Assembly (NCBI RefSeq): GCF_003367075.2
Contig: NZ_CP065936.1
Span: 2,070,001-2,102,000, forward strand
DNA from: Cylindrospermopsis raciborskii Cr2010
GTDB taxonomy: Bacteria > Cyanobacteriota > Cyanobacteriia > Cyanobacteriales > Nostocaceae
Direction: 5' to 3'
DNA: 32,000 bases
Shown piece by piece: positions 1 to 17,814 of this stretch; the first letter of the stretch is position 1; every line of letters starts with the position of its first letter. A program made the position numbers and the translations under genes. Below the pieces are notes generated by a model that worked only from the letters and a program-made list of their open reading frames with translations, had not been told where the DNA came from and did no database searches.

Positions 1-1150
1 AGAAAGTCCTTTATTTCTAAACCTGGGTGATTTGTAGTGCCACCCCGGGCGACGCCTCGTAAAGGTTTTTGGCAACGGATTTTTTCTAGTGGAAAATATT
101 GCTGGATCCACTTTTGTATAGCAGGTAATTGTACTGTGCCACCCACCGTGCAAAACTGCGCTATCATCTATTTGCACACCTTGATGACGAGCCTGTTGTA
201 ATAAATTCAACATAGTCTCATCCAATCGGCAAAAAACTGATCTTGGAGAATAGTTTCATGTCTGACGAGATTCAACCTTAACTCATAACTGGCAAAATTT
301 TGATCGTCAAAGTAGACCTCTCCAGCTTGATTGTGGGTAGACAATTCAATTTTCAACCTCTCCGCCAATCTAGTAGTAATAGAATTAACTGGCAATCCCT
401 GAGTTGTCACAAAACAATCAACTATCCAATTATCAATATCTGTGCCAACGGTTTTGTCCTCTGATTTGGCCGCACCTTGGCTGTTTTTACCTTTTGTGAG
501 AGTCCAGCCAAAGATTTATTTCCCCATTTTTAATAAAAAAAACCTCACAGGTTTATTATCTACTGGGTCTTTTTATCCAGCTTCACCAAAGATAGATTCA
601 GAGTTCCCGCCAAAATCAATCACTAACAAATTTTCAGTCTTTACACTGTATGCTAAAGCAGCAGCGGTAGGCTCATCCAACATTCTAATTTAGTAACTGG
701 CAAGCTTGAAAACTTTGCCTAGCCAATAACGATAAACTTCAAAACTATCCACTGAACGGTTAATACCAAAGAGTCCAATCCGCCCTCAATAGATACAACT
801 CCCTATTATCCCCTGGAGTAGAAACCATAAAGCTTCCACCTTTTCAAAAGCAATAGTTTCCACTATTTCTGGGTAAGAAACCTGAATATCTGCTCCAACA
901 CCCCGTTTAAAAACTGGGTGAAAAAATCTACTATCACCCATGAGATCTAAAACCCGGATCTCGTATCTGCTGACCAATTAACACCTATCTTGATTTGCCG
1001 CTTCTATATAAACTAAACTGCATCAAAGGAGGATTCAAACCCTGTCGAGTAGATAACCCTGGCAAACTGGAGGGTTTCTGGTTGCTGGGTCACAGGGTTC
1101 CATCGGGTAATTACCGTATTACTCGTACCAAAATCAATTGCGGGTATATA
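1..1150 (-). pseudogene. Hsp70/DnaK-family ATPase, degraded by multiple frameshifts and in-frame stops; runs off the left edge
   Basis: Minus-strand translation gives Hsp70 hallmark peptides in different frames, separated by stops. These are 'YIPAIDFGTSNTVITRW' (about 1150-1100), 'RMLDEPTAAALAYSVKTENLLVIDFGGN' (about 689-603) and 'VGGTVQLPAIQKWIQQYFPLEKI' (about 146-70). The track ORFs at 207-410 and 786-977 are fragments of this gene. Confidence 0.7.
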
Positions 1151-1527
1151 CTGAGATTTTTTACTGAAACTGGGGAATTTAACTTCCGTTCCAGTAAGGA
1201 TTGTTATTATGGTCTGACAGTTTGCTATACAATAGCATAAATTGTCAGCTCACTGGGTCCGCAAATTGCCTCCAGGAATTTAACCCAAATGAGACCTGCC
1301 ATTTTACAACCGACATTCTTACACTTTCCGGCAATATTTCGTCGACCTATGAACCGGAGATATTCTGGGAGAACTCGGTTATGAGTTCCAACGGTCAACA
1401 TTATCTCCCCAGTCAGACATTAATCTTGACCGACTGACGACCAAAAACCCGATCCAAGAAAGCCTCCTATATTAGCCTCACCAGCGAAGCTGCTCGCCGT
1501 GAACTACCATTGCTCCTTTATTAATAG

Positions 1528-1975
1528 ATGTACTACATTATACTCATGCCCAACTTAGGTAGAATATTCCTAAATGTTAGTGAACACATAGTTGCCTTGA
1601 TTACTACTTATACTCCGGCAGGTAAACTCCTGATTGTTGAAGCAAAAAATGCAGATCTCACCAGAGGTTTTACTCAACTTGCAGTCGAGCTGATTGCCCT
1701 TGATATCTGAGTAATTAGCGAAGAACCCATTCTCCACAGCCGTTTCCACAGGTGACATCTGGCAGTTTGAATTCTGCATCGGGGTAGCGGGCAAATTCAA
1801 CAAGTATTAAATCTATATCGAGTACCAGATGAGCTGGAAAGCTTAATGCGTATTCTTATAAAAAAATCCTTCAGCCCTATGAATGGGAAAATGGAAACTT
1901 CAGCTATATCTTCCTCTGCTCAGGTATTCCCTTTAGTTTACCCGACCTCACACATCCTGATGAATTAATCAGGTT
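1528..1975 (+). pseudogene. Small PD-(D/E)XK-like protein (cyanobacterial '...VEAK...TGDxWxF...LYRVPDELE' family), frameshifted remnant
   Basis: 'LLIVEAKNADLTRGFTQLAVELIALD' ends in a stop at 1710. The homologous continuation 'VSTGDIWQFE...' and then 'LNLYRVPDELESLMRILIKK' appear in two other frames. The family assignment is from memory of the motif pattern only. Confidence 0.35.
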
Positions 1976-3450
1976 CGTACCAAGTAGTTGAAAATCACTA
2001 TTAGCAGTGTTTTAATTATTATTTGGGAGTGGCGATCGCTTGATCAGTTTTTCCTCAAGACGGGAAACGGAACAGCAGGCGGATTTTGGTGAGATTGGCC
2101 TGCCTGTTATTCCCAAATTTTGCGTGGCATACCACACTTTGCATTGGTGTTAATTTATCAGTAACGATTTTTCCTTTACTTCCACCCTCTGAGTAATCGT
2201 TACCATCACTGGGAGCAAGCAAAGGTGGCTAAGGTAACTGAATCTGTTGCTGGTGATAGATTAGAACACAACGCACCTCGTGTTAGTTATATAACTGAGG
2301 AACCCTATAGCTACACAACCTGGAGTCAGGGATAGAATTGTTAAGGTGACGGACAAGCAAAAAGTCACCTGGTATTTAAATTTGGCTGGCCCCAAATTCG
2401 CGACTATTGATCAAAGTAGACGTGCAAAATCGCAGTGCCATTTATATTACTGACTATACTGGTGAGTACAAAATAGAAGTCAATACCCTAAATAATAAAA
2501 ATCAGTTTATATTTGAAGCACCACCACCATACGGCTATTCTCTCTTATCTGGATATAAAGTGGAGAGAAGGGACAAGACTAGAACAGACCAGTCCAGAAG
2601 ATTATGGATTTCCTTGACTTAAATCCTGGAGAGCAAGCCACCATCAAAGGTTAATAAGCACAAGGGGGACCGTGTTGGGTATATAATGCCACTAATCAGT
2701 TACTCTCTGGTTTCCGCCCTACAGCTATACAGATTTGCTAATGCGGATTTTGCCAGTGGTATAGTTCCTCAGGAAATAAAAAGAGATGGAGGTAATAGTC
2801 AATTCACTTGGATTTTTAATGATAATGTTTCTGTCAAAATCCTTTCGGTGTTTACGGCTACTAAACCCATAGGTAAAACCGGAATTATAATTTCGCTTAT
2901 TATTATTAGAAGCACCAGGATTATTTTTGTGGTGTGATATTACTACCATACTTAACTGTACCCATGAGCTTACAAAAATCTGGAAGGATCGCTGGGGAGT
3001 GTTCTTTACCGCTTATTAACTTTGGGCCACATACGTCAAGGTTTATGAGTGGAGAAATGCCTGCTAATAATTTCACTGGTGTTAATAGGTTTAATTATGG
3101 GTTGGGTGGGAATCGTCAATTAGGATTAGCAGCAATTATTTGTACCATTGTTGAGCGGTTTTACCTGTATTTGCATTTTTAGTTCTTTACTGGTCTAACT
3201 CCTCAGTTTAGCAGGATTATTATCAGTGATCTGGTTAGGGACATATTGGTATGACTTGGTGTACAGAAAATTTAATAATCATACAAACAGACAGTTCTAA
3301 CTAAAACCAGCCACCTAGGCGCTTTTCCTAAGCACTTGGCTAAAAGCATGATTTCACCAGATTTCAGGATCAATTCTGAGATATTTAATGTATAGTGAGG
3401 ATTGATATAGTTAATGATAATGTTGGTTTAAGACAGCAAAGGAGTTAGTA

Positions 3451-4325
3451 ATGCTCACGTCGGAGGCAAAAAGCCGCTGACAATTTCCCCAAAGAATCCT
3501 TTTTAGACCCTGAGGTCTGAACTAAACCGTGTTGCTATTCTTGCAGTAGTAACTATGTTGGTACTTTCTAGCTGTGGTTACTGGGTATGGGAATGCCTCT
3601 ATTGGTTATGTTTTGGCATCAACACACCCTGTCCTACATTTCTCAGGCACGATTATTCATGATGCTTGTCATCAATCAGCCCATCGTAACCAACAGCTAA
3701 CGCCATATTGGGTCAAGTGCTAGCTTCCTGTGCCACTAGCCTTGCTTTCCCAGTTTTTACCAGATACACCTACAACACCATGGCAATGTCAATCATCCCA
3801 AAGATGACCCGGATCATTATGTTTCCACAGGTGGTCCACCGTGGTTAATCGCGGTGGAGATTTTGTACCATGAGGTGTTTTTCTTTCCAAAGGCAACTTT
3901 TTGGCGTAACATGAACTACTAGAATGGTTCCTTAGCTGATCATCTTTACTATTGTCTATATTTCATTCAATATCACTTTTAGGGCATATTCTCAACTTCT
4001 GGTTTGTCCCAGCTTTTGTAGTAGGCATAACACTGGGATTCTTTTGATTTACTTACCACATCGTCCATTTGTAGAGCGCGATCGGTGAAGAATGCTCGTG
4101 TATCCTGGCAAATCCTTTAATATGCTAATTTTAGGGCAGAATGTCATCTATTCATCATTTGTGCCTTCCACTATTTGGTACAATTATCAACCTGCCTACT
4201 ACCTGATGAAGCCCATTTAGATTGAGAAAGGTAGCCCCCAAACTTCCGGTTTATTACAAAAAGGATTTTTGAATTTCTATGATATTTCACTGGTCTTCAT
4301 TTTCATCACCATGAATAATAACTGA
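3451..4325 (+). pseudogene. Fatty acid desaturase-family (membrane di-iron, three His boxes) pseudogene
   Basis: An AAGGAG sits 7 nt upstream of the ATG at 3451, but a stop follows after 9 codons. His box 1 'HDACHQSAH' is at 3658-3684. His box 2 'LQHHGNVNHPKDDPDHY' is at about 3770-3826. His box 3 'IHHL' at 4150-4161 and the following 'WYNYQPAYYLMKP' at 4176-4217 lie in different frames. Several in-frame stops are present. Confidence 0.55.
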
Positions 4326-4527
4326 GAAATTTAATTGTTGAGGTTGTGGAAGTAGTACATTTTACGGTTAAGCACATCTAGTCTGAATTTTTCCGTTTAT
4401 TCTCTTCCTAATTCATAGATGCTAGCACCTACAGTAGTGAGTATACCAGCATTAATTCCCAACTAGAACCTAAACTAATTTGTGACCCCAGTAGGATAAT
4501 GCACCAAATACCAAGAAAGGTAAATGC

Positions 4528-4758
4528 TCATAATTGAAGCATAAAAAGCATTTGAGACTCTCTAGCTGTGCGGGTTTTTTCAAATTCCGTCTCGCTAGTA
4601 TATAGAAACCGCTCGGCAAAATTAAACCAGCGATTTAATTGTGTGATTATCCATTCTCTAATGGATGCTAAAGCCAAATACAAAGCTAAAGACCATAAAC
4701 AAGAACCAGCGATGGCTACTTTATCTATCGTGAATTGAAAAGGTAATATATCAAGCAT
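4528..4758 (-). CDS. Hypothetical small membrane protein, possibly itself a remnant
   Basis: This is a 76-aa ORF with one hydrophobic stretch ('VAIAGSCLWSLALYLALASI'). After its stop the same frame continues with more hydrophobic sequence ('AFTFLGIWCIILLGSQ...'), which suggests an interrupted larger gene. I recognise no family. Confidence 0.2.
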   Translation of the reverse strand: MLDILPFQFTIDKVAIAGSCLWSLALYLALASIREWIITQLNRWFNFAERFLYTSETEFEKTRTARESQMLFMLQL

Positions 4759-4843
4759 ACTAAAGATATTAAGTGATAAACTCCCATTTTACTTGAATTT
4801 GTCCTCAAATCCATATTTTATACTTAGAACTGATTATGTCATT

Positions 4844-6397
4844 ATGCCTAAACAATTTAACACTGCTGGCCCCTGCAAAGCCAACATTCACTATATGCTC
4901 TCTCCCACAGGGCGACTACCTCAGTTGAAAGCATTAATTGATGGAGAAAATTACTTTATCATTCATGCACCGCGACAAGTAGGCAAAACCACTGCTATGA
5001 TGGCCTTAGCTCAAGAATTAACTGACAGTAGGCAATACCTAGCTGTGATGTTAACCGTAGAAACCGGTGCGCCATTTCCAGATGCACCAGAACAAGCGCA
5101 ACAAAGTATCCTCAGACGTTGGCAGAATGAAATTCGGTTCCGAAAATTACCCTTGCCCACTTTAACCCAAATTCAAAGGGAGACCGAGACTTCTCCCCTA
5201 GATATTCAAACAGTCCTGCAAGGGTGGGCCATGGCTTCCCCCCTACCCTTAGTGGTCTTTCTGGATGAAATTGATTCTTTAGAGGATCAAACCCTCATAT
5301 CCATCCTTAGACAGTTGCGAGCGGGTTATCCCAATCGTCCCCAGGGTTTCCCCCATTCGGTGGGCTTAATTGGGATGCGGGACGTGCGGGACTACAAGGT
5401 TAAATCTGGTGGAAGTGAACGACTCAATACGTCTAGTCCGTTTAATATCAAGGCTGAATCCCTAACTTTAAGTAATTTTACTTTTACAGATGTCCAAAAT
5501 TTATATGAACAACATACAACAGCTACGGGACAGGTGTTTACCCCGGAAGCAGTTCAACAGGCATATTATTTAACCGATGGACAACCATGGTTAGTTAACG
5601 CCCTAGCTCGTCAAGCTACCCAGGTGTTAGTCCAGGATATGAATGAACCCATTACTGCTGAGGTGATTAACCAAGCCAAAGAAATGCTCATTCAGCGTCA
5701 GGATACCCATTTGGATAGTTTAGCAGAAAGATTACGGGAAGCGCGGGTCAAAACTATTATTGAACCAATTTTAGCAGGTGAGGACTTACCCGACGTACCA
5801 CCGGATGATATTCGTTACGTGCTGGATTTAGGTCTGTGTCGAGATCAAGGACAAGGACTGGAAATTGCCAATCCAATTTATAAAGAAGTTCTACCTTTAG
5901 TACTAAGTTATACAACTAGGGTTTCTATTGGAGCAATTGAACCTCTGTGGCTAAATGAACAAGGGGAATTATTACCCAATAAATTATTACATGCTTTTCT
6001 GGAGTTTTGGCGACAACACGGAGAACCATTGCTCAAGAGTGCGCCCTACCATGAGATTGCCCCCCATTTAGTTTTGATGGCATTTTTACACCGGGTGGTA
6101 AATGGTGGTGGTACGTTAGAACGGGAATATGCCATTGGTTCTGGGAGAATGGATATTTGTTTACGATATGGCAAGGTAGTGATGGGTATGGAACTCAAGG
6201 TGTGGCGTGAAAGAAAGTCAGATCCGTTAATCAAGGGTTTGACCCAACTGGATAAATACCTGGATGGGTTAGGATTAGATACAGGTTGGTTAGTGATTTT
6301 CGATCGCCGTCCCGGTTTACCACCCATGGGAGAGAGGATTAGTACGGAGGAGATTATTAGTCCTAATGGGCGCACCATTACCCTCATTCGTAGTTAG
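4844..6397 (+). CDS. P-loop NTPase / PD-(D/E)XK nuclease fusion protein, array copy 1 (modules K-A-X)
   Basis: The long ORF carries Walker A 'HAPRQVGKTT', Walker B 'LVVFLDEIDS' and a C-terminal 'EREYAIGSGRMDICLRYGKVVMGMELKVW' (D...E-x-K). The start is set at ATG 4844 ('MPKQFNTAGPC'), by homology with the other copies, rather than the track's TTG at 4793. Confidence 0.8.
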   Translation: MPKQFNTAGPCKANIHYMLSPTGRLPQLKALIDGENYFIIHAPRQVGKTTAMMALAQELTDSRQYLAVMLTVETGAPFPDAPEQAQQSILRRWQNEIRFRKLPLPTLTQIQRETETSPLDIQTVLQGWAMASPLPLVVFLDEIDSLEDQTLISILRQLRAGYPNRPQGFPHSVGLIGMRDVRDYKVKSGGSERLNTSSPFNIKAESLTLSNFTFTDVQNLYEQHTTATGQVFTPEAVQQAYYLTDGQPWLVNALARQATQVLVQDMNEPITAEVINQAKEMLIQRQDTHLDSLAERLREARVKTIIEPILAGEDLPDVPPDDIRYVLDLGLCRDQGQGLEIANPIYKEVLPLVLSYTTRVSIGAIEPLWLNEQGELLPNKLLHAFLEFWRQHGEPLLKSAPYHEIAPHLVLMAFLHRVVNGGGTLEREYAIGSGRMDICLRYGKVVMGMELKVWRERKSDPLIKGLTQLDKYLDGLGLDTGWLVIFDRRPGLPPMGERISTEEIISPNGRTITLIRS

Positions 6398-6455
6398 ATT
6401 CCCATAAATTTGAACCACATCTGAATCACAGTAGTACCTTAACTTATTGTCAATT

Positions 6456-8012
6456 ATGCCTAAACACTTTAATACTGCTGGACCTTGTCAATCTGATATC
6501 CACTATATGCTCTCTCCCACAGGGCGACTACCTCAGTTGAAAGCATTAATTGATGGACGCAATTACTTTATCATTCATGCACCACGACAAGTGGGCAAAA
6601 CCACTGCTATGATGGCCCTAGCTCAAGAATTAACTGACAGTGGGCAATACCTAGCTGTGATGTTAACCGTAGAAACCGGTGCGCCATTTCCAGATGCACC
6701 AGAACAAGCGCAACAAAGTATCCTCAGACGTTGGCAGAATGAAATTCGGTTCCGAAAATTACCCTTGCCCACTTTAACCCAAATTCAAAGGGAGACCGAG
6801 ACTTCTCCCCTAGATATTCAAACAGTCCTGCAAGGGTGGGCCATGGCTTCCCCCCTACCCTTAGTGGTCTTTCTGGATGAAATTGATTCTTTAGAGGATC
6901 AAACCCTCATATCCATCCTTAGACAGTTGCGAGCGGGTTATCCCAATCGTCCCCAGGGTTTCCCCCATTCGGTGGGCTTAATTGGCATGCGGGACGTGCG
7001 GGACTACAAGGTTAAATCTGGTGGGAGTGAACGACTTAATACATCTAGTCCGTTCAATATCAAGGCTGAATCCCTAACTTTAAGTAATTTTAGTTTTACA
7101 GATGTGCAAAATTTATACGAACAACATACAACAGCTACAGGGCAAGTATTTACCCTGGGAGCAGTTCAACAGGCATATTATTTAACCGATGGACAACCAT
7201 GGTTAGTTAACGCCCTAGCTCGTCAAGCTACCCAGGTGTTAGTAAAGGATGTGAAGCAACCCATTACTGCTGAGGTGATTAACCAAGCCAAGGAAATCCT
7301 CATCCAGCGTCAGGATACCCATTTAGATAGTTTGGCGGAAAGATTACGGGAAGAGCGGGTTAGGGATATTATTCAACCCATGTTAGCTGGTGAAGACTTA
7401 GCTGATACAGCAGAAGATAATTTACGATATGTCCTAGACTTGGGTTTATGTCGTCGCGATCGCGGGGGTGCATTAGAAATTGCTAACCCCATTTATCGGG
7501 AGATTTTACCTAAGACCTTAGCTGCAGTGGCGATCGCATCTCTAACTTCTGTGGAACCCAACTGGTTAAACTCTGATGGTACTCTCAATCCTCAAATTCT
7601 ATTAAACTCTTTCTTGGAATTTTGGCGACAACATGGGGAACCATTACTCAAAAGTGCGCCCTATCATGAAATTGCTCCCCATTTGGTGTTAATGGCATTT
7701 TTACACCGAGTGGTAAATGGTGGTGGTACGTTAGAGCGGGAATATGCCATTGGTTCTGGGAGAATGGATATTTGTTTACGCTATGGCAAGGTGGTGATGG
7801 GTATGGAACTCAAGGTGTGGCGTGAAAGAAAGTCAGATCCGTTAATCAAGGGTTTAACCCAACTGGATAAATATCTGGATGGGTTAGGATTAGATACGGG
7901 TTGGTTAGTGATTTTCGATCGCCGTCCCGGGTTACCCCCCATGGGAGAGAGGATTAGTACGGAGGAGGTTATTAGTCCTAGTGGGCGCACCATTACCCTG
8001 ATTCGTAGTTAG
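6456..8012 (+). CDS. P-loop NTPase / PD-(D/E)XK nuclease fusion protein, array copy 2 (modules Q-A-Y)
   Basis: Same motifs as copy 1. The start is set at ATG 6456 ('MPKHFNTAGPC'); the track starts at TTG 6447. The V2 cassette is form Y ('RDIIQPMLAGEDLADTAEDNLRYVLDLGLCRRDRGG...'). Confidence 0.8.
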   Translation: MPKHFNTAGPCQSDIHYMLSPTGRLPQLKALIDGRNYFIIHAPRQVGKTTAMMALAQELTDSGQYLAVMLTVETGAPFPDAPEQAQQSILRRWQNEIRFRKLPLPTLTQIQRETETSPLDIQTVLQGWAMASPLPLVVFLDEIDSLEDQTLISILRQLRAGYPNRPQGFPHSVGLIGMRDVRDYKVKSGGSERLNTSSPFNIKAESLTLSNFSFTDVQNLYEQHTTATGQVFTLGAVQQAYYLTDGQPWLVNALARQATQVLVKDVKQPITAEVINQAKEILIQRQDTHLDSLAERLREERVRDIIQPMLAGEDLADTAEDNLRYVLDLGLCRRDRGGALEIANPIYREILPKTLAAVAIASLTSVEPNWLNSDGTLNPQILLNSFLEFWRQHGEPLLKSAPYHEIAPHLVLMAFLHRVVNGGGTLEREYAIGSGRMDICLRYGKVVMGMELKVWRERKSDPLIKGLTQLDKYLDGLGLDTGWLVIFDRRPGLPPMGERISTEEVISPSGRTITLIRS

Positions 8013-8053
8013 ATTCCGATAAATTTGAATCACACCTTAAATTATTGCCGATT

Positions 8054-9607
8054 ATGTTTAAACACTTTAATACTGCTGGACCTTGCCAATCTGATATCCA
8101 CTATATGCTCTCTCCCACAGGGCGACTACCTCAGTTGAAAGCATTAATTGATGGACGCAATTACTTTATCATTCATGCACCGCGACAAGTGGGTAAAACC
8201 ACTGCCATGATGGCCCTAGCTCAAGAATTAACTGACAGTGGACAATACCTAGCTGTGATGTTAACCCTAGAAACCGGTGCGCCATTTCCAGATGCACCAG
8301 AACAAGCGCAACAAAGTATCCTGAGACGTTGGCAGAATGAAATTCGGTTTCGAAAATTACCTTTGCCTAATTTAACACAAATTGAAACAGAGACTGAGAC
8401 CTCTCCCTTAGATATTCAAACAGTTCTGCAAGCTTGGGCCATGGCTTCCCCTCTACCTTTAGTTGTGTTTTTGGATGAAATTGATTCTTTGGAAGATCAA
8501 ACTCTCATATCCATTCTCAGACAATTACGAGCGGGTTATCCCAATCGTCCCCAGGGTTTTCCCCATTCGGTGGGCTTAATTGGCATGCGGGATGTGCGGG
8601 ACTACAAGGTTAAATCTGGTGGAAGTGAACGACTCAATACGTCTAGTCCGTTTAATATCAAGGCTGAATCCCTAACTTTGAGTAATTTTAGTTTTACAGA
8701 TATTCAAAATTTATATGAACAACATACAACAGCTACGGGACAGGTGTTTACCCTGGGAGCAGTTCAACAGGCATATTATTTAACTGATGGACAACCATGG
8801 TTAGTTAACGCCCTAGCTCGTCAAGCTACCCAGGTATTAGTCCAGGATGTGAATCAACCCATTACTGCTGAAGTGATTAACCAAGCCAAAGAAATCCTCA
8901 TCCAGCGTCAGGATACCCATTTGGATAGTTTAGCAGAAAGATTACGGGAAGAGCGGGTCAAAGCTATTATTGAACCAATTTTAGCAGGTGAAGACTTACC
9001 CGACATACCACCAGATGATATTCGTTATGTGCTGGATTTAGGACTGTGTCGAGATCAAGGACAAGGCTTGGAAATTGCCAATCCAATTTATAAGGAAGTT
9101 CTACCTCTAGTGCTAAGTTACACAACTAGGGTTTCTATTGGAGCAATTGAACCTCTGTGGCTAAATGAACAAGGGGAACTATTACCTGATAAATTATTAC
9201 ATGCTTTTCTGGAGTTTTGGCGACAACACGGGGAACCATTACTCAAAAGTGCGCCCTACCATGAGATTGCTCCCCATTTGGTGTTGATGGCATTTTTACA
9301 TCGGGTAGTTAATGGTGGTGGTACTTTAGAGCGGGAATATGCCATTGGTTCTGGAAGAATGGATATTTGTTTACGCTATGGCAAGGTGGTAATGGGTATG
9401 GAACTCAAGGTGTGGCGTGAAAGAAAGTCAGATCCGTTAATCAAGGGTTTGACCCAACTGGATAAATACCTGGATGGGTTAGGATTAGATACGGGTTGGT
9501 TAGTGATTTTCGATCGCCGTCCCGGTTTACCACCTATGGGAGAGAGGATTAGTACGGAGGAGGTTATTAGTCCCACTGGGCGCACTATTACCCTAATTCG
9601 TAGTTAG
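8054..9607 (+). CDS. P-loop NTPase / PD-(D/E)XK nuclease fusion protein, array copy 3 (modules Q-A'-X)
   Basis: Same motifs. The start is set at ATG 8054 ('MFKHFNTAGPC'). Its V1 form A differs from the other A copies mostly at synonymous sites. Confidence 0.8.
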   Translation: MFKHFNTAGPCQSDIHYMLSPTGRLPQLKALIDGRNYFIIHAPRQVGKTTAMMALAQELTDSGQYLAVMLTLETGAPFPDAPEQAQQSILRRWQNEIRFRKLPLPNLTQIETETETSPLDIQTVLQAWAMASPLPLVVFLDEIDSLEDQTLISILRQLRAGYPNRPQGFPHSVGLIGMRDVRDYKVKSGGSERLNTSSPFNIKAESLTLSNFSFTDIQNLYEQHTTATGQVFTLGAVQQAYYLTDGQPWLVNALARQATQVLVQDVNQPITAEVINQAKEILIQRQDTHLDSLAERLREERVKAIIEPILAGEDLPDIPPDDIRYVLDLGLCRDQGQGLEIANPIYKEVLPLVLSYTTRVSIGAIEPLWLNEQGELLPDKLLHAFLEFWRQHGEPLLKSAPYHEIAPHLVLMAFLHRVVNGGGTLEREYAIGSGRMDICLRYGKVVMGMELKVWRERKSDPLIKGLTQLDKYLDGLGLDTGWLVIFDRRPGLPPMGERISTEEVISPTGRTITLIRS

Positions 9608-9670
9608 AAAAATGCGATCGCTAAGTAAAACGTAAATTATTATTTTGCTACTTATAAATTATACCTTACT

Positions 9671-11212
9671 ATGCCTAAACAATTTAACACTGCTGGACCT
9701 TGTCAATCTGATATCCACTATATGCTCTCTCCCACAGGGCGACTACCTCAGTTAAAAGCGTTAATTGATGGACGCAATTACTTTATCATTCATGCACCGC
9801 GACAAGTGGGCAAAACCACTGCTATGATAGCTTTAGCCCAAGAATTAACTGATAGTGGGGAGTATACAGCAGTGATGCTCTCCGTGGAAGTGGGGTCGGT
9901 TTTTCCTGATGAACCAGAACGTGCTGAAAGAGCCATTTTGGGTTCTTGGCAAGATGCAATTGATATTTGGCTTCCGCAAGACCTCCATCCCCCTTTTGAC
10001 CCAGAGCGTAGGGAGAATATTGGTGCTTTCCTGAAAAGTTGGGCAAAAAGCTCTCCTCGTCCCCTAGTGGTGTTCATTGATGAAATTGACTCGTTGCAAA
10101 ATCAAACGTTGATTTCAGTATTGCGACAGTTACGGGATGGTTTTCCCCGTCGTCCCCAGGGTTTTCCCCATTCGGTGGGCTTAATTGGCATGCGGGATGT
10201 GCGGGACTACAAGGTTAAATCTGGTGGAAGTGAACGACTCAATACGTCTAGTCCGTTTAATATCAAGGCTGAGTCCCTAACTTTGAGTAATTTTAGTTTT
10301 ACAGATATTCAAAATTTATATGAACAACATACAACAGCTACGGGACAGGTGTTTACCCTGGGAGCAGTTCAACAGGCATATTATTTAACTGATGGACAAC
10401 CATGGTTAGTTAACGCCCTAGCTCGTCAAGCTACCCAGGTATTAGTCCAGGATGTGAATCAACCCATTACTGCTGAGATGATTAACCAAGCCAAAGAAAT
10501 CCTCATTCAACGCCAGGATACCCATTTAGATAGCTTAGCAGAGCGATTACGGGAAGAGCGGGTTAAGACCATTATTGAACCAATTTTAGCAGGTGAGGAC
10601 TTACCCGACGTACCACCGGATGATATTCGTTACGTGCTGGATTTAGGTCTGTGTCGAGATCAAGGACAAGGACTGGAAATTGCCAATCCAATTTATAAAG
10701 AAGTTCTACCTTTAGTGCTAAGTTATACAACTAGGGTTTCTATTGGAGCAATTGAACCTCTGTGGCTAAATGAACAAGGGGAACTATTACCTGATAAATT
10801 ATTACATGCTTTTCTGGAGTTTTGGCGACAACACGGAGAACCATTGCTCAAAAGTGCGCCCTACCATGAGATTGCTCCCCATTTAGTTTTGATGGCATTT
10901 TTACACCGGGTGGTAAATGGTGGTGGTACGTTAGAACGGGAATATGCCATTGGTTCTGGGAGAATGGATATTTGTTTACGCTATGGCAAGGTGGTGATGG
11001 GTATGGAACTCAAGCTGTGGCGTGAAAGAAAGTCGGATCCTTTAATTAAGGGTTTAACCCAACTGGATAAATATCTAGATGGGTTAGGATTAGATACGGG
11101 TTGGTTAGTGATTTTCGATCGCCGTCCTGGTTTACCACCCATGGGAGAGAGGATTAGTACGGAGAAGGTTATTAGTCCTAGGGGACGCACCATTACCCTC
11201 ATTCGTAGTTAG
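9671..11212 (+). CDS. P-loop NTPase / PD-(D/E)XK nuclease fusion protein, array copy 4 (modules Q-B-X)
   Basis: Same scaffold. V1 is form B ('LSVEVGSVFPDEPERAERAILGSWQDAIDIWLPQDLHPPFDPERRENIGAFLKSWAKSSPRP'), which is 4 codons shorter than form A. Confidence 0.8.
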   Translation: MPKQFNTAGPCQSDIHYMLSPTGRLPQLKALIDGRNYFIIHAPRQVGKTTAMIALAQELTDSGEYTAVMLSVEVGSVFPDEPERAERAILGSWQDAIDIWLPQDLHPPFDPERRENIGAFLKSWAKSSPRPLVVFIDEIDSLQNQTLISVLRQLRDGFPRRPQGFPHSVGLIGMRDVRDYKVKSGGSERLNTSSPFNIKAESLTLSNFSFTDIQNLYEQHTTATGQVFTLGAVQQAYYLTDGQPWLVNALARQATQVLVQDVNQPITAEMINQAKEILIQRQDTHLDSLAERLREERVKTIIEPILAGEDLPDVPPDDIRYVLDLGLCRDQGQGLEIANPIYKEVLPLVLSYTTRVSIGAIEPLWLNEQGELLPDKLLHAFLEFWRQHGEPLLKSAPYHEIAPHLVLMAFLHRVVNGGGTLEREYAIGSGRMDICLRYGKVVMGMELKLWRERKSDPLIKGLTQLDKYLDGLGLDTGWLVIFDRRPGLPPMGERISTEKVISPRGRTITLIRS

Positions 11213-11275
11213 AAAAATGCGATCGCTAAGTAAAACGTACTTTATTATTTTGATGATTATAAATTATACTTTATC

Positions 11276-12832
11276 ATGGCTAAACAATTTAACACTGCTG
11301 GTCCGTGCAAAGCCAACATTCACTATATGCTTTCTCCCACAGGGCGACTACCTCAGTTGAAAGCATTAATTGATGGAGAAAATTACTTTATCATTCATGC
11401 ACCGCGACAAGTAGGCAAAACCACTGCTATGATGGCCCTAGCTCAAGAATTAACTGACAGTGGGCAATACCTAGCTGTGATGTTAACCGTAGAAACCGGT
11501 GCGCCATTTCCAGATGCACCAGAACAAGCGCAACAAAGTATCCTCAGACGTTGGCAGAATGAAATTCGGTTCCGAAAATTACCCTTGCCCACTTTAACCC
11601 AGATTCAAAGGGAGACCGAGACTTCTCCCCTAGATATTCAAACAGTCCTACAAGGGTGGGCCATGGCTTCCCCCCTACCCTTAGTTGTCTTTCTGGATGA
11701 AATTGATTCCTTAGAGGATCAAACCCTCATATCCATCCTTAGACAGTTGCGAGCGGGTTATCCCAATCGTCCCCAGGGTTTCCCCCATTCGGTGGGCTTA
11801 ATTGGGATGCGGGACGTGCGGGACTACAAGGTTAAATCTGGTGGAAGTGAACGACTCAATACGTCTAGTCCGTTTAATATCAAGGCTGAATCCCTAACTT
11901 TAAGTAATTTTAGTTTTACAGATGTCCAAAATCTATATGAACAACATACAACAGCTACGGGACAGGTGTTTACCCCGGAAGCAGTTCAACAGGCATATTA
12001 TTTAACCGATGGACAACCATGGCTAGTTAACGCCCTAGCTCGTCAAGCTACCCAGGTGTTAGTCCAGGATGTGAATGAACCCATTACTGCTGAGGTGATT
12101 AACCAAGCCAAAGAAATCCTCATTCAGCGTCAGGATACCCATTTGGATAGTTTAGCAGAAAGATTACGGGAAGAGCGGGTCAAAGCTATTATTGAACCAA
12201 TTTTAGCAGGTGAGGACTTACCAGATACCCCAGAGGATGATCGCCGGTTTTTGCTAGATTTAGGCTTAGTTAAGCGTAGTCCTTTGGGTGGACTAACCAT
12301 TGCCAATCCCATTTACCAGGAGGTGATCCCTCGTGTTTTATCCCAGGGTAGTCAGGACAGTTTACCTCAAATTCAACCCACTTGGTTAAATACTGACAAT
12401 AGTTTAAATCCCCAAGCTCTATTAAATGCTTTTCTGGAATTTTGGCGACAACATGGGGAACCATTACTCAGAAGTGCGCCCTACCATGAGATTGCTCCCC
12501 ATTTGGTATTAATGGCATTTTTACACCGGGTGGTAAATGGTGGTGGTACATTAGAACGGGAATATGCCATTGGTTCTGGGAGAATGGATATTTGTTTACG
12601 ATATGGCAAGGTGGTGATGGGTATGGAACTCAAGGTGTGGCGTGAAAGAAAGTCAGATCCGTTAATCAAGGGTTTGACCCAACTGGATAAATATCTAGAT
12701 GGGTTAGGATTAGATACGGGTTGGTTAGTGATTTTCGATCGCCGTCCTGGTTTACCACCCATGGGAGAGAGGATTAGTACGGAGAAGGTTATTAGTCCTA
12801 GGGGACGCACCATTACCCTCATTCGTAGTTAG
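11276..12832 (+). CDS. P-loop NTPase / PD-(D/E)XK nuclease fusion protein, array copy 5 (modules K-A-Z)
   Basis: Same scaffold. V2 is form Z ('TPEDDRRFLLDLGLVKRSPLGGLTIANPIYQEVIPRVLSQGSQDSLPQIQPTWLNTDNSLNPQALLNAF'). Confidence 0.8.
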   Translation: MAKQFNTAGPCKANIHYMLSPTGRLPQLKALIDGENYFIIHAPRQVGKTTAMMALAQELTDSGQYLAVMLTVETGAPFPDAPEQAQQSILRRWQNEIRFRKLPLPTLTQIQRETETSPLDIQTVLQGWAMASPLPLVVFLDEIDSLEDQTLISILRQLRAGYPNRPQGFPHSVGLIGMRDVRDYKVKSGGSERLNTSSPFNIKAESLTLSNFSFTDVQNLYEQHTTATGQVFTPEAVQQAYYLTDGQPWLVNALARQATQVLVQDVNEPITAEVINQAKEILIQRQDTHLDSLAERLREERVKAIIEPILAGEDLPDTPEDDRRFLLDLGLVKRSPLGGLTIANPIYQEVIPRVLSQGSQDSLPQIQPTWLNTDNSLNPQALLNAFLEFWRQHGEPLLRSAPYHEIAPHLVLMAFLHRVVNGGGTLEREYAIGSGRMDICLRYGKVVMGMELKVWRERKSDPLIKGLTQLDKYLDGLGLDTGWLVIFDRRPGLPPMGERISTEKVISPRGRTITLIRS

Positions 12833-12895
12833 AAAAATGCGATCGCTAAGTAAAACGTACTTTATTATTTTGATGATTATAAATTATACTTTATC

Positions 12896-14449
12896 ATGGC
12901 TAAACAATTTAACACTGCTGGTCCGTGCAAAGCCAACATTCACTATATGCTTTCTCCCACAGGGCGACTACCTCAGTTGAAAGCATTAATTGATGGAGAA
13001 AATTACTTTATCATTCATGCACCGCGACAAGTAGGCAAAACCACTGCTATGATGGCCCTAGCTCAAGAATTAACTGACAGTGGGCAATACCTAGCTGTGA
13101 TGTTAACCGTAGAAACCGGTGCGCCATTTCCAGATGCACCAGAACAAGCGCAACAAAGTATCCTCAGACGTTGGCAGAATGAAATTCGGTTCCGAAAATT
13201 ACCCTTGCCCACTTTAACCCAGATTCAAAGGGAGACCGAGACTTCTCCCCTAGATATTCAAACAGTCCTACAAGGGTGGGCCATGGCTTCCCCCCTACCC
13301 TTAGTTGTCTTTCTGGATGAAATTGATTCCTTAGAGGATCAAACCCTCATATCCATCCTTAGACAGTTGCGAGCGGGTTATCCCAATCGTCCCCAGGGTT
13401 TCCCCCATTCGGTGGGCTTAATTGGGATGCGGGACGTGCGGGACTACAAGGTTAAATCTGGTGGGAGTGAACGACTTAATACGTCTAGTCCGTTTAATAT
13501 CAAGGCTGAATCCCTAACTTTAAGTAATTTTAGTTTTACAGATGTCCAAAATCTATATGAACAACATACAACAGCTACGGGACAGGTGTTTACCCCGGAA
13601 GCAGTTCAACAGGCATATTATTTAACTGATGGACAACCATGGTTAGTTAACGCCCTAGCTCGTCAAGCTACCCAGGTGTTAGTCCAGGATGTGAATGAAC
13701 CCATTACTGCTGAAGTGATTAACCAAGCAAAAGAAATTCTCATTCAGCGTCAGGATACCCATTTGGATAGTTTAGCAGAAAGATTACGGGAAGCACGGGT
13801 TAGGGATATTATTCAACCCATGTTAGCTGGTGAAGACTTAGCTGATACAGCAGAAGATAATTTACGATATGTCCTAGACTTGGGTTTATGTCGTCGCGAT
13901 CGCGGGGGTGGACTAGAAATTGCTAACCCCATTTATCGGGAGATTTTACCTAAGACCTTAGCTGCAGTGGCGATCGCATCTCTAACTTCTGTAGAACCCA
14001 ACTGGTTAAACTCTGATGGTACTCAATCCTCAAATCCTCTTAAACTCTTTCTTGGAATTTTGGCGACAACATGGGGAACCATTACTTAAAAGTGCGCCCT
14101 ATCATGAGATTGCCCCCATTTGGTGTTAATGGCATTTTTACACCGGGTAGTAAATGGTGGTGGTACGTTAGAGCGGGAATATGCCATTGGTTCTGGGAGA
14201 ATGGATATTTGTTTACGCTATAGCAAGGTGGTGATGGGTATAGAAATTAAGATGTGGCGTGAAAGAAAGTCAGATCCTTTAATTAAGGGTTTGACCCAAC
14301 TGGATAAATACCTGGATGGGTTAGGATTAGATACAGGTTGGTTAGTGATTTTCGATCGCCGTCCTGGTTTACCACCTATGGGAGAGAGGATTAGTACGGA
14401 GGAGGTTATTAGTCCTAGGGGACGCACTATTACCCTCATTCGTAGTTAG
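12896..14449 (+). pseudogene. P-loop NTPase / PD-(D/E)XK nuclease fusion, array copy 6 (modules K-A-Y), disrupted by two compensating frameshifts
   Basis: Compared with copy 7 there is a 2-bp deletion ('actctcaatcc' becomes 'actcaatcc', about 14024) and a 1-bp deletion in a C-run (C6 becomes C5, about 14113-14117). The frame is restored after about 90 nt, but the shifted segment contains TAA at 14087-14089. This splits the gene into the track ORFs 12896-14089 and 14120-14449, which share one frame. Confidence 0.75.
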
Positions 14450-14507
14450 ATTCCCATAAATTTGAACCACATTTGAATCACAGTAGTACCTTAACTTATT
14501 GTCAATT

Positions 14508-16052
14508 ATGCCTAAACACTTTAATACTGCTGGACCTTGTCAATCTGATATCCACTATATGCTCTCTCCCACAGGGCGACTACCTCAGTTGAAAGCATTA
14601 ATTGATGGACGTAATTACTTTATCATTCATGCACCGCGACAAGTGGGCAAAACCACTGCTATGATAGCTTTAGCCCAGGAATTAACTGATAGTGGGGAGT
14701 ATACAGCAGTGATGCTCTCCGTGGAAGTGGGGTCGGTTTTTCCTGATGAACCAGAACGTGCTGAAAGGGCTATTTTGGGTTCTTGGCAAGATGCAATTGA
14801 TATTTGGCTTCCGGAAGACCTCCATCCCCCTTTTGACCCGGAGCGTAGGGAGACTATTGGTGCTTTCCTGAAAAGTTGGGCAAAAAGCTCTCCTCGTCCT
14901 CTAGTGGTCTTCATTGATGAAATTGACTCATTGCAAAATCAAACCTTGATTTCGGTATTGCGACAGTTACGGGATGGTTTTCCCCGTCGTCCTCGGGGTT
15001 TCCCCCATTCGGTGGGCTTAATTGGGATGCGGGACGTGCGGGACTACAAGGTTAAATCTGGTGGGAGTGAACGACTTAATACGTCTAGTCCGTTTAATAT
15101 CAAGGCTGAATCCCTAACTTTAAGTAATTTTAGTTTTACAGATGTCCAAAATCTATATGAACAACATACAACAGCTACGGGACAGGTGTTTACCCCGGAA
15201 GCAGTTCAACAGGCATATTATTTAACTGATGGACAACCATGGTTAGTTAACGCCCTAGCTCGTCAAGCTACCCAGGTGTTAGTCCAGGATGTGAATGAAC
15301 CCATTACTGCTGAAGTGATTAACCAAGCAAAAGAAATTCTCATTCAGCGTCAGGATACCCATTTGGATAGTTTAGCAGAAAGATTACGGGAAGCACGGGT
15401 TAGGGATATTATTCAACCCATGTTAGCTGGTGAAGACTTAGCTGATACAGCAGAAGATAATTTACGATATGTCCTAGACTTGGGTTTATGTCGTCGCGAT
15501 CGCGGGGGTGGACTAGAAATTGCTAACCCTATTTATCGGGAGATTTTACCTAAGACCTTAGCTGCAGTGGCGATCGCATCTCTAACTTCTGTAGAACCCA
15601 ACTGGTTAAACTCTGATGGTACTCTCAATCCTCAAATTCTCTTAAACTCTTTCTTGGAATTTTGGCGACAACATGGGGAACCATTACTTAAAAGTGCGCC
15701 CTATCATGAGATTGCCCCCCATTTGGTGTTAATGGCATTTTTACACCGGGTAGTAAATGGTGGTGGTACGTTAGAGCGGGAATATGCCATTGGTTCTGGG
15801 AGAATGGATATTTGTTTACGCTATAGCAAGGTGGTGATGGGTATAGAAATTAAGATGTGGCGTGAAAGAAAGTCAGATCCGCTAATTAAGGGTTTGACCC
15901 AACTGGATAAATACCTGGATGGGTTAGGATTAGATACAGGTTGGTTAGTGATTTTCGATCGCCGTCCTGGGTTACCACCTATGGGAGAGAGGATTAGTAC
16001 GGAGGAGGTTATTAGTCCTAGGGGACGCACTATTACCCTCATTCGTAGTTAG
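14508..16052 (+). CDS. P-loop NTPase / PD-(D/E)XK nuclease fusion protein, array copy 7 (modules Q-B-Y)
   Basis: Same scaffold, with the start at ATG 14508. The nuclease motif variant 'RYSKVVMGIEIKMW' still keeps the E-x-K residues. Confidence 0.8.
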   Translation: MPKHFNTAGPCQSDIHYMLSPTGRLPQLKALIDGRNYFIIHAPRQVGKTTAMIALAQELTDSGEYTAVMLSVEVGSVFPDEPERAERAILGSWQDAIDIWLPEDLHPPFDPERRETIGAFLKSWAKSSPRPLVVFIDEIDSLQNQTLISVLRQLRDGFPRRPRGFPHSVGLIGMRDVRDYKVKSGGSERLNTSSPFNIKAESLTLSNFSFTDVQNLYEQHTTATGQVFTPEAVQQAYYLTDGQPWLVNALARQATQVLVQDVNEPITAEVINQAKEILIQRQDTHLDSLAERLREARVRDIIQPMLAGEDLADTAEDNLRYVLDLGLCRRDRGGGLEIANPIYREILPKTLAAVAIASLTSVEPNWLNSDGTLNPQILLNSFLEFWRQHGEPLLKSAPYHEIAPHLVLMAFLHRVVNGGGTLEREYAIGSGRMDICLRYSKVVMGIEIKMWRERKSDPLIKGLTQLDKYLDGLGLDTGWLVIFDRRPGLPPMGERISTEEVISPRGRTITLIRS

Positions 16053-16110
16053 ATTCCCATAAATTTGAACCACATTTGAATCACAGTAGTACCTTAACTT
16101 ATTGTCAATT

Positions 16111-17646: not shown

Positions 17647-17711
17647 ATTCCCATAAATTTGAACCACACCTTAAATTATTGCCGATTATGCCCAAACACT
17701 TTAACATTTAG
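17647..17711 (+). pseudogene. Truncated ninth array unit: spacer plus the first 7 codons ('MPKHFNI*')
   Basis: 17647-17687 matches the spacer that follows copy 2. The ATG at 17688 is followed by 'cccaaacactttaaca', which matches the gene 5' end. Homology then stops and a TAG follows at 17709-17711. Confidence 0.8.
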
Positions 17712-17724
17712 GGTTATTTAATTT

Positions 17725-17754
17725 AAAAAACTCCCCATCCTAGACGGTGGGGAG
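17725..17754 (-). terminator. Rho-independent terminator downstream of the GH15 gene
   Basis: On the minus strand the sequence reads CTCCCCA-(10-nt loop)-TGGGGAG followed by TTTTTT. It lies 60 nt after the stop at 17815. Confidence 0.7.
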
Positions 17755-17814
17755 TATGAAGGAGACTGTTAATTTTTAGATCGGTAAAAATCTAAATGAT
17801 CACAAAGAGTGGAA

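Follow-up and report, generated by a model that had tools for sequence, protein, structure and literature searches.

What is the function of a segment that takes three distinct forms in eight otherwise similar genes standing side by side on one chromosome? The question is raised by a locus of the cyanobacterium Cylindrospermopsis raciborskii Cr2010, analysed here as a window of 32,000 nucleotides (contig NZ_CP065936.1, positions 2,070,001 to 2,102,000). Positions 4844-17646 of the window hold eight paralogues on the plus strand, arranged head to tail, each of 511-518 codons and separated by spacers of 41-63 nt. They belong to the CyrO family of Cylindrospermopsis/Raphidiopsis, whose protein of ~515 amino acids combines an N-terminal AAA+ ATPase and its helical lid with a predicted winged helix and, at the C-terminus, a PD-(D/E)XK nuclease, all in one polypeptide. 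Two internal blocks, termed V1 and V2, vary between the copies. The original prediction, made from the letters of the window, described V2 as a variable cassette that separates the NTPase from the nuclease and keeps a fixed fold, and saw in it a specificity or recognition element. The first part agrees with a confident structural model and with the behaviour of V2 as a recombining unit. As to the second, judgement is evenly divided on whether V2 is a self-contained, selectively maintained, exchangeable recognition module of a single-polypeptide ATP-dependent nuclease.

In a MAFFT alignment of the eight copies, V2 takes exactly three forms, X in copies 1, 3 and 4, Y in copies 2, 6 and 7, and Z in copies 5 and 8, which is the grouping originally predicted. 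The block is ~270 nt long (~70-85 residues; nucleotide-alignment columns ~958-1222). Two forms differ from one another at 98-115 nucleotides (~40%) and copies of the same form at 2-16, whereas the constant flanking segments, ~150-380 nt long with V1 excluded, contain 0-32 differences (1-8%). The contrast between the forms and their flanks is far beyond chance. Divergence between X and Y spans positions 5743-6004 of copy 1, close to the predicted 5745-6000, and the examples that had been given for copies 2 and 5 fit as well. Divergence between X and Z starts at 5791 in copy 1, ~16 codons (~48 nt) later, and the right edge is unchanged. The peptide strings reported for the forms are correct, except that copy 3 reads DIPPDD, not DVPPDD, and that the reading frame of copy 6 is broken.

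The location of V2 on the protein was examined in an AlphaFold2 model computed from an alignment of 103 homologues, widened with myxobacterial and other relatives (predicted local distance difference test score (pLDDT) 87.6, predicted template modelling score (pTM) 0.83). An earlier AlphaFold model from 23 close homologues was discarded as poor (pLDDT 65, pTM 0.36). The predicted model comprises an AAA+ core (residues 37-208) and lid helices (214-284), followed by helices 291-298, 300-311 and 320-328 and a β-hairpin (332-341) in a winged-helix layout. A helix (344-361) and a strap loop (362-377) then lead into an α/β domain (378-517), the nuclease, which begins at H378. V2 spans residues ~301-387 in form Y and ~317-387 in form Z. 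It takes in part of helix 2 of the predicted winged helix, runs on through the turn, helix 3 (where a recognition helix usually lies), the wing, the helix after it and the strap, and ends in the first turns of the helix that opens the nuclease domain. Its N-terminal half falls in the modelled three helices and hairpin wing. The pLDDT of V2 is 84-90; V2 is therefore no floppy linker, and of the two outcomes foreseen originally, a winged-helix or surface domain as opposed to an unfolded linker, the model favours the former.

The conserved skeleton that had been noticed within V2 (LDLGL, IANPIY.E..P and WL) maps onto this fold, with LDLGL at the end of helix 3, IANPIY past the wing, and then P351, L354 and W369-L370. 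Its core positions are invariant or nearly so in the 103 sequences, save P351, which is invariant among the closer cyanobacterial sequences only. Residues specific to one form occur before and in helix 3 (318-323), in the wing (332-340) and above all in the short helix and strap (356-368), where positions 356, 357, 359, 360, 363, 364 and 368 are the most form-specific. Many of these residues are 90-100% conserved within a form across cyanobacterial orders.

The two putative catalytic domains are recognised by motif and by predicted fold. In the C-terminal domain, GxxExxY (423-429) is followed by D437, E450-x-K452 and Q468-xxx-Y472, and D437, E450, K452, Q468 and Y472 are invariant in the 103-sequence alignment. 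The predicted order is helix 403-419, strands 424-430, 435-442 and 445-454, helix 462-476 and strand 480-487. The domain gives recurrent sub-threshold Pfam matches to PDDEXK_9, NucS_C, PDDEXK_1, PDDEXK_3 and SfsA and a weak profile match to Cas4 (4ic1), and a Clostridium homologue of 26% identity is annotated as 'GxxExxY protein'. The predicted fold order, the D...(D/E)xK signature and the RecB/Cas4-like QxxxY motif thus place it, on sequence and model, in the PD-(D/E)XK superfamily. The N-terminal part is likewise assigned to the P-loop AAA+ ATPases from its Walker A GKT, its Walker B hhhhDE and the modelled core and lid. The best Foldseek matches of the whole model in the Protein Data Bank (PDB) are the archaeal AAA+ proteins 2qen (E 4e-11) and 2fna (E 7e-10), followed by RFC, RuvB and ORC/Cdc6. 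Pfam matches to AAA_35 and AAA_16 cover the N-terminal ~350 residues and are borderline. Against the AAA_35 (PF14516) cut-off of 27.0 bits, copies 1, 4, 7 and 5 score 27.5, 26.8, 25.3 and 24.0, and many homologues carry a precomputed PF14516 match. With AAA_16 (PF13191; cut-off 32.6 bits) the V1 form decides the outcome, in that copies 4 and 7 with V1 form B pass (33.6 and 34.6) and the V1 form A copies fall below (26.7 for copy 1, 27.7 for copy 5).

Membership of several narrower families was not found. PDDEXK_9 (PF08011) scored 14.5-22.3 bits in four diverse members against a cut-off of 25.5. No match to the archaeal ATPase family PF01637 was obtained at E below 0.01, so the likeness to that family is structural only. 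There are no repeat-domain Pfam matches as in STAND or Avs-type proteins, and the 515 residues are all assigned to AAA+, lid, winged helix and nuclease. No Pfam match points to a type I restriction-modification HsdS subunit either; the flanking genes that were scanned are metabolic, and no neighbour recurs across 80 loci. A single-sequence search of the PDB gave zero matches and a profile search only weak ones; an NCBIfam scan gave nothing meaningful, and an Rfam scan of the whole window had zero matches.

The age of the forms bears on how they are maintained. Nei-Gojobori estimates by segment gave, between V2 forms, a nonsynonymous divergence (dN) of 0.37-0.59, a synonymous divergence (dS) above 1 or incalculable through saturation, and a ratio (ω) of 0.15-0.45. 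Within a form ω is about 0-0.10, and in the flanks dS is mostly 0.02-0.35 and ω 0.02-0.25. The saturation between forms and the low ω within them therefore show the forms to be old and each to be under purifying selection. The original prediction had implied rapid diversification, which these values do not support. A reading of V2 as hypervariable and under continuing positive selection, for instance for escape from phage inhibitors, can point to the between-form ω, a few-fold above that of the flanks, and to the differences in copy number and order between strains. However, ω stays below 1 and dS is saturated, so that the ratio is uninformative and positive selection is beyond the reach of the test. 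The rate of change of V2 within a form does not exceed that of the backbone, and across species V2 is as conserved as the backbone or more so. The four Cylindrospermopsis/Raphidiopsis arrays examined contain no form besides these three discrete ones, in differing order and number. Such an arms race is very improbable and already largely refuted. Positive selection on V2 was dropped on the same values of ω and dS, which cannot demonstrate it, and per-site estimates among three saturated forms would be meaningless.

The forms extend well beyond Cylindrospermopsis. V2 was extracted from 174 family members, drawn from 80 loci in the genomes of other species and from database proteins. The sequences fall into discrete clusters, among them X (78 sequences), Y (24) and Z (31), which include Pseudanabaena and Prochlorothrix; the three forms are found in other cyanobacteria too, and the search for additional forms that had been proposed yielded further classes in Nostocales and Myxococcota. 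Different forms in the same genome have 49-61% identity in V2, compared with mostly 86-99% in the backbone (mid and C-terminal regions); the exception is one Pseudanabaena metagenome bin, in which the backbones of different forms are 74-81% identical. For the same form in different species, identity is 65-93% in V2 and 68-95% in the backbone. Copies 1 and 3 of Pseudanabaena minima, for example, are 99% identical in the mid region and 52% in V2, and P0048 and P0070 of Prochlorothrix hollandica 98% at the C-terminus and 54% in V2, while V2 of Cylindrospermopsis copy 5 is 84% identical to that of P0039 from Prochlorotrichaceae. On these comparisons the backbone undergoes concerted evolution within genomes, and the cassette types are retained across lineages.

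V2 varies independently of the other cassette. V1 lies in the AAA+ core (alignment columns ~206-575); it starts just past the Walker A helix and takes in the Walker B strand and the helix that follows. Copies 1, 2, 3, 5 and 6 carry form A and copies 4, 7 and 8 form B, with dN ~0.32-0.33 and dS ~1.8-2.4 between the two. The order of V1/V2 types along the array is AX AY AX BX AZ AY BY BZ, so that all six combinations are present. Family-wide there are at least five V1 classes, each of them paired with every one of the three V2 forms. In a set of 87 non-redundant cyanobacterial sequences, no position outside residues 316-384 covaries with the V2 class; the maximum normalised mutual information is 0.21, versus up to 1.0 inside. 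Within V2, the helix-and-wing half and the half with the strap always occur together (65/65, 22/22 and 33/33). V2 is a single co-adapted unit that is independent of the rest of the protein, V1 included.

Exchange between the copies has left several traces. Of the informative-site pairs in the constant regions, 54% are incompatible under the four-gamete test, and in the pairwise homoplasy index (PHI) test 0 of 1000 permutations were as extreme as the observed value. The first ~525 nt of copy 6 equal those of copy 5 with 0 differences, and its remaining ~1040 nt show 8 differences from copy 7. The array as a whole is ~99.9% identical to that of chromosome CP091284.1, with the same eight copies in the same order, and a 300-bp tract of copy 7 carries 25 clustered substitutions relative to that chromosome. 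The tract ends exactly at the left border of V2; its alleles are copy-6-like in the window and copy-2-like in CP091284.1, and copies 2, 6 and 7 all have form Y. It represents a fresh gene conversion between copies that share a V2 form. In two other strains the same locus has nine copies (AX BX AY AX AZ AZ AY BY BZ) and in C. curvispora seven (AY AX BX AZ BZ AZ BX). R. curvata NIES-932 has two (BZ AX) at a different locus, the third V2 form being on a protein encoded elsewhere. The three long Cylindrospermopsis arrays (7-9 copies) all hold X, Y and Z, and so does one Pseudanabaena metagenome bin. Decayed copies occur as well, namely copy 6 in the window and internally deleted versions in strains S07 and C04.

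The mosaic might instead be an artefact of assembly, if repeats had been collapsed or joined chimerically in a draft genome. Small indels relative to the sister strain do crowd the first ~4.5 kb of the window, and copy 6 has two frameshifts. However, the independent complete chromosome agrees over the array in identity, copy number and order, and the same forms occur in other complete genomes and in separately deposited proteins, which leaves an artefact of this kind with hardly any probability.

It is also conceivable that the three V2 forms are equivalent, being neutral relics of three old paralogue lineages that have become too diverged (~40% of nucleotides) for conversion. Conversion tracts that stop at the V2 border, and a V2 that is saturated while its flanks are homogenised, would both follow, and the mosaic would arise mechanically, without selection for diversity. 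On the other hand, the within-form ω of 0.05-0.1 and the 90-100% conserved residues represent form-specific constraint and not drift. Whole-cassette replacement does occur, as V1 and V2 assort freely, and without selection one form should then take over; instead, the long arrays and the Pseudanabaena bin keep X, Y and Z, and NIES-932 retains its third form off-locus. Neutral persistence is accordingly held to be improbable and, like the arms race, fits the data poorly.

The reading of V2 as a recognition module would account for the locus as follows. In each genome, gene conversion and unequal exchange among the copies homogenise the rest of the gene, and conserved sequence on either side of V2 lets the whole cassette move between copies, so that V2 forms assort freely with V1 in the six combinations of the array. 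The V2 form would then decide which target the ATPase-nuclease acts on, the likeliest being some nucleic-acid feature that helix and wing would read, and the array would thus amount to a small, selectively maintained repertoire of specificities. DNA-binding members of the winged-helix fold contact DNA through helix 3 and the wing, and initiator-type ATPases touch DNA through the AAA+ core region that corresponds to V1. Target recognition is favoured because the variable residues of V2 lie at these classic reading positions of the predicted winged helix and in a strap that faces the nuclease, because V2 has no co-evolving partner inside the protein, because genomes keep several V2 forms, and because V1 itself lies in the part of the core through which initiator-type ATPases touch DNA. 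Modularity, conservation and placement on a fold are what one would expect of a specificity module; that V2 sets what the ATPase-nuclease recognises is inferred from them.

Several observations weigh against this interpretation. The V2 segment is net acidic to neutral and not strongly basic, its conserved basic residues, read from the sequences, including R324, K/R333 and R/K352. A winged helix that contacts protein, as in STAND and some AAA+ proteins, is equally compatible with the data. The residues most specific to a form are in the strap and not in the helix or wing, so that the strap might serve as an interface and not as a reading head. The phage collection searched contained zero homologues, PADLOC gave no match (noise only, E above 0.005), no neighbouring gene is conserved across the 80 loci when open reading frames (ORFs) within 3.5 kb are clustered, and the neighbours, judged by eye and unquantified, give no consistent defence-island signal. 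A few do look defence-like or mobile-like by eye (DUF262-like, McrB-like, methyltransferase, integrase and IS200-type transposase). The largest neighbour cluster, at 12 of the 80 loci, begins with a protein that looks, by eye, of sensor-kinase type. A multi-gene system was rejected for want of a recurrent neighbour in the 80 loci. Given the PADLOC, neighbour and phage negatives, a role in genome conflict or defence, suggested by domain content, copy-number variation and phyletic spread, is no more than plausible.

The prominence of the strap leads to the main rival explanation, an assembly code in which the V2 surface, and the strap especially, would drive dimerisation or oligomerisation of like with like and so keep co-expressed paralogues, whose backbones are near-identical, out of mixed, non-functional complexes. 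Dimers or oligomers are the usual working state of PD-(D/E)XK nucleases and AAA+ ATPases. The strongest form-specific positions lead directly into the nuclease domain, and the lack of V2 covariation elsewhere in the protein is as compatible with homotypic contact between V2 segments as with an external ligand. The spacers contain no terminator-like sites, so the copies may be co-transcribed and co-expressed. This explanation leaves the independent variation of V1 and the keeping of all V1 x V2 combinations unaccounted for, and insulation alone would not need the same three forms to be kept across orders; it is regarded as unlikely, if deserving of attention. Within target recognition, a further step is possible but rather doubtful, namely that the array is a germline combinatorial repertoire in which V1 and V2 are reading heads exchangeable independently on one ATP-driven nuclease chassis. 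Gene conversion would keep the chassis uniform and selection would keep the full set of heads, with 2 x 3 combinations in the window and at least 5 x 3 across cyanobacteria. If true, filamentous and other complex bacteria would possess, in a single gene, a kind of nucleic-acid surveillance or restriction that has not been described before, its specificity reprogrammed by cassette exchange.

The family is large. More than 8000 database proteins were matched, and there are ~5100 representatives at 50% identity. The closest, at 95-96% identity, are from Cylindrospermopsis raciborskii. The window copies share length and motifs with proteins that bear the NCBI name 'polyketide biosynthesis operon protein CyrO' (P0053, P0062), to which they are ~74-77% identical, and the family as a whole is called CyrO. 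Members at 50-60% identity occur in Myxococcota, Acidobacteriota, Chloroflexota and Planctomycetota, relatives at ~25% identity in Firmicutes, Bacteroidota and Thermotogota, and homologues also on several plasmids of Pseudanabaena and other cyanobacteria. Tandem arrays were rejected as a hallmark of the family, as only 3 of the 80 loci of other species are multi-copy. A 993-residue representative (P0122) is matched by the query in two stretches and may consist of two fused CyrO-like units or of one unit with a large N-terminal extension. In the literature, CyrO is the last ORF, at the 3' end of the cylindrospermopsin (cyr) cluster. It is described as a possible toxin regulator with no established function and weak AAA/WD similarity, and it occurs independently of the cluster (PMC3922686, PMC2885083). 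Neither of these papers describes a nuclease domain, a winged helix, cassettes or a tandem array. Literature searches on AAA_35/PF14516 and DUF234/PDDEXK_9 gave nothing relevant, and the conflict-systems paper of Kaur et al. 2020 does not mention CyrO, AAA_35 or Cdc6. In several Nostocales (L021, L024, L037, L048) the CyrO-like gene adjoins ORFs that resemble, by eye, NiFe-hydrogenase subunits, which echoes the published position of cyrO between hyp genes.

The coordinates of the array and of its features are collected in Table 1.

Table 1 Features of the CyrO-family array in window coordinates.
Feature	Position	Strand	Remarks
Array	4844-17706	+	Eight CyrO-family genes and 19-nt stub of a ninth
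Copy 1	4844-6397	+	AX, 517 residues
Copy 2	6456-8012	+	
Copy 3	8054-9607	+	
Copy 4	9671-11212	+	
Copy 5	11276-12832	+	
Copy 6	12896-14449	+	
Copy 7	14508-16052	+	
Copy 8	16111-17646	+	
Ninth-copy stub	17688-17706	+	ATGCCCAAACACTTTAACA; preceded by a normal spacer; shows where the repeat unit ends
Walker A, copy 1	4976-4993	+	RQVGKT; G47, K48, T49, T50 invariant (103 sequences)
V1, copy 1	4998-5360	+	Form A
Walker B strand, copy 1	5252-5269	+	VVFLDE; D141, E142 invariant (103 sequences)
Predicted winged helix, copy 1	5714-5872	+	Helices 291-298, 300-311, 320-328; wing 332-341
Helix and strap loop, copy 1	5873-5974	+	Residues 344-361 and 362-377
PD-(D/E)XK nuclease domain (assigned), copy 1	5975-6394	+	
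V2, copy 1	5743-6004	+	Form X, residues ~301-387
V2, copy 2	7355-7619	+	Form Y
V2, copy 3	8953-9214	+	Form X, 16 nt differences from copy 1
V2, copy 4	10558-10819	+	Form X
V2, copy 5	12223-12439	+	Form Z (12175/12223-12439); divergent block begins ~48 nt later than in Y
V2, copy 6	13795-14057	+	Form Y, 2-bp deletion at 14021
V2, copy 7	15395-15659	+	Form Y
V2, copy 8	17037-17253	+	Form Z
Recent gene-conversion tract, copy 7	15095-15395	+	300 bp; 25 clustered substitutions vs CP091284.1

The start of copy 1 was placed at the ATG at 4844 and not at the TTG at 4793, on the basis of homologue N-termini. Copy 6 is a pseudogene in this window. Its 2-bp deletion inside V2 and a 1-bp deletion at 14112, just past V2, jointly restore the frame but enclose a stop codon (14087-14089). 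The gene is intact (518 residues) in a near-identical sister strain, and a sequencing error is possible, as the second deletion falls in a C run. All other copies behave, by their sequences, as functional genes. Copy 8 lacks, at 16454-16455, three codons (VRD) that the other seven copies have in GLIGMRD[VRD]YKVKS; the loss sits within an RDVRDY direct repeat, is shared by the deposited Cr2010 protein P0038, and at the same site copy 8 of the sister strain is one codon (3 nt) longer.

The spacers (6398-6455, 8013-8053, 9608-9670, 11213-11275, 12833-12895, 14450-14507, 16053-16110 and 17647-17687) are of two unrelated types. The first begins ATTCC[CG]ATAAATTTGAA and has long and short versions; the second begins AAAAATGCGATCGCTAAG and includes the cyanobacterial HIP1 palindrome GCGATCGC. 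The spacers are therefore mosaic as well. No enrichment of promoters or terminators over shuffled sequence was found in them, and no spacer between copies has a terminator-like site. In copies 1 and 5, the coding region of the nuclease domain has an antisense ORF of 113 codons opposite it on the minus strand (6046-6387 and 12481-12822); most likely both ORFs are spurious and arise merely as a consequence of the repeat. The G+C content is 42-46% across the array (window 5001-18000) versus 37-42% in the flanking DNA, in agreement with the published remark that cyrO is G+C-richer than its surroundings (PMC3922686).

Upstream of the array, window positions 1-4550 differ from CP091284.1 (locus L081) by ~170 small indel events and ~120 mismatches, with ~70% of the indel columns adjoining the same base, while from 4551 on the identity is ~99.9%. 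The genes called in L081 upstream of the array, as far as the alignment reaches (203 residues, 474 residues and a 295-residue fatty-acid desaturase) have no intact ORF in the window, and a 127-residue gene adjoining the array probably has none either; the region is either low-quality assembly or oddly degraded. The downstream genes, on the opposite strand, are unrelated and include a glucoamylase, a DyP peroxidase, sugar-phosphate isomerase-like proteins and others. In a nine-copy strain (L088, 13317-13835), only a 172-residue ORF containing CBM_20 stands in place of the 873-residue glucoamylase gene of the window, and the right flank continues with a rhomboid, an intein-containing DnaB and others; C. 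curvispora (L085, from 11557 onward) is alike. The differing right flanks therefore place the array at a rearrangement breakpoint between strains.

CyrO-like genes are abundant in cyanobacteria, myxobacteria and other complex bacteria, with up to nine copies per array in a bloom-forming toxic cyanobacterium, and the only prior label of the family came from an adjoining toxin cluster. The present analysis replaces the anonymous label 'ATP-binding protein' by a concrete model of modular specificity that can be tested: an ATPase-nuclease with a predicted winged helix, two ancient, reassorting cassettes and a conversion event caught at a cassette border. Natural paralogues that are otherwise ~95-99% identical represent ready-made V2 swap experiments. 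If the cassettes set nucleic-acid specificity, the protein would offer a compact programmable nuclease scaffold and a new example of how bacteria maintain a repertoire; should they govern assembly instead, the array would provide a clear natural example of how paralogues are insulated from one another.

The array can be compared with several known systems. CyrO of the cyr cluster belongs to the same family, but the array is flanked by genes that have nothing to do with toxin synthesis. Among archaeal Walker-type AAA+ ATPases, PABY2304 (2qen) and SSO1545 (2fna) align over ~391 columns, essentially the whole target, with target-normalised template modelling (TM) scores of 0.64 and 0.59. However, identity is only 13-14%, the solved chains lack a C-terminal PD-(D/E)XK domain, and these proteins are also uncharacterised. 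They belong to Pfam PF01637, whose members occur in several copies per archaeal genome and frequently carry, as a fusion, the putative nuclease-like domain DUF234. Proteins that combine AAA-ATPase_like (PF09820) with PDDEXK_9 (PF08011) likewise have an N-terminal P-loop ATPase and a C-terminal nuclease in ~500 standalone residues, and PDDEXK_9 is the most consistent sub-threshold match of the CyrO-family C-terminus (E 1e-4 to 0.04 in four diverse members). In contrast, the ATPase part of the CyrO family matches AAA_35/AAA_16 and not PF09820, and these relatives too are uncharacterised.

ORC/Cdc6 and RuvB share the order of AAA+ base, lid and winged helix (Foldseek E ~1e-7 to 1e-9). In Orc1/Cdc6 the winged helix and an insertion in the AAA+ core both contact DNA, and V2 and V1 lie at roughly these two places. 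Nonetheless, RFC clamp-loader subunits score equally, the array has no origin context, and a fusion to a nuclease is foreign to these proteins. A useful analogy is with the shuffling of target recognition domains in type I HsdS, where two variable modules likewise reside in a conserved recombination substrate and the modules are discrete, old and reassorted. The two are not homologous, and the array lacks a methyltransferase or HsdR partner, an invertase and silent partial copies; instead, each cassette is inside a full-length gene with its own ATPase and nuclease, and the DNA specificity of V2 is inferred. By this analogy, an evolutionary logic like that of HsdS would operate here in a non-homologous, single-gene ATPase-nuclease.

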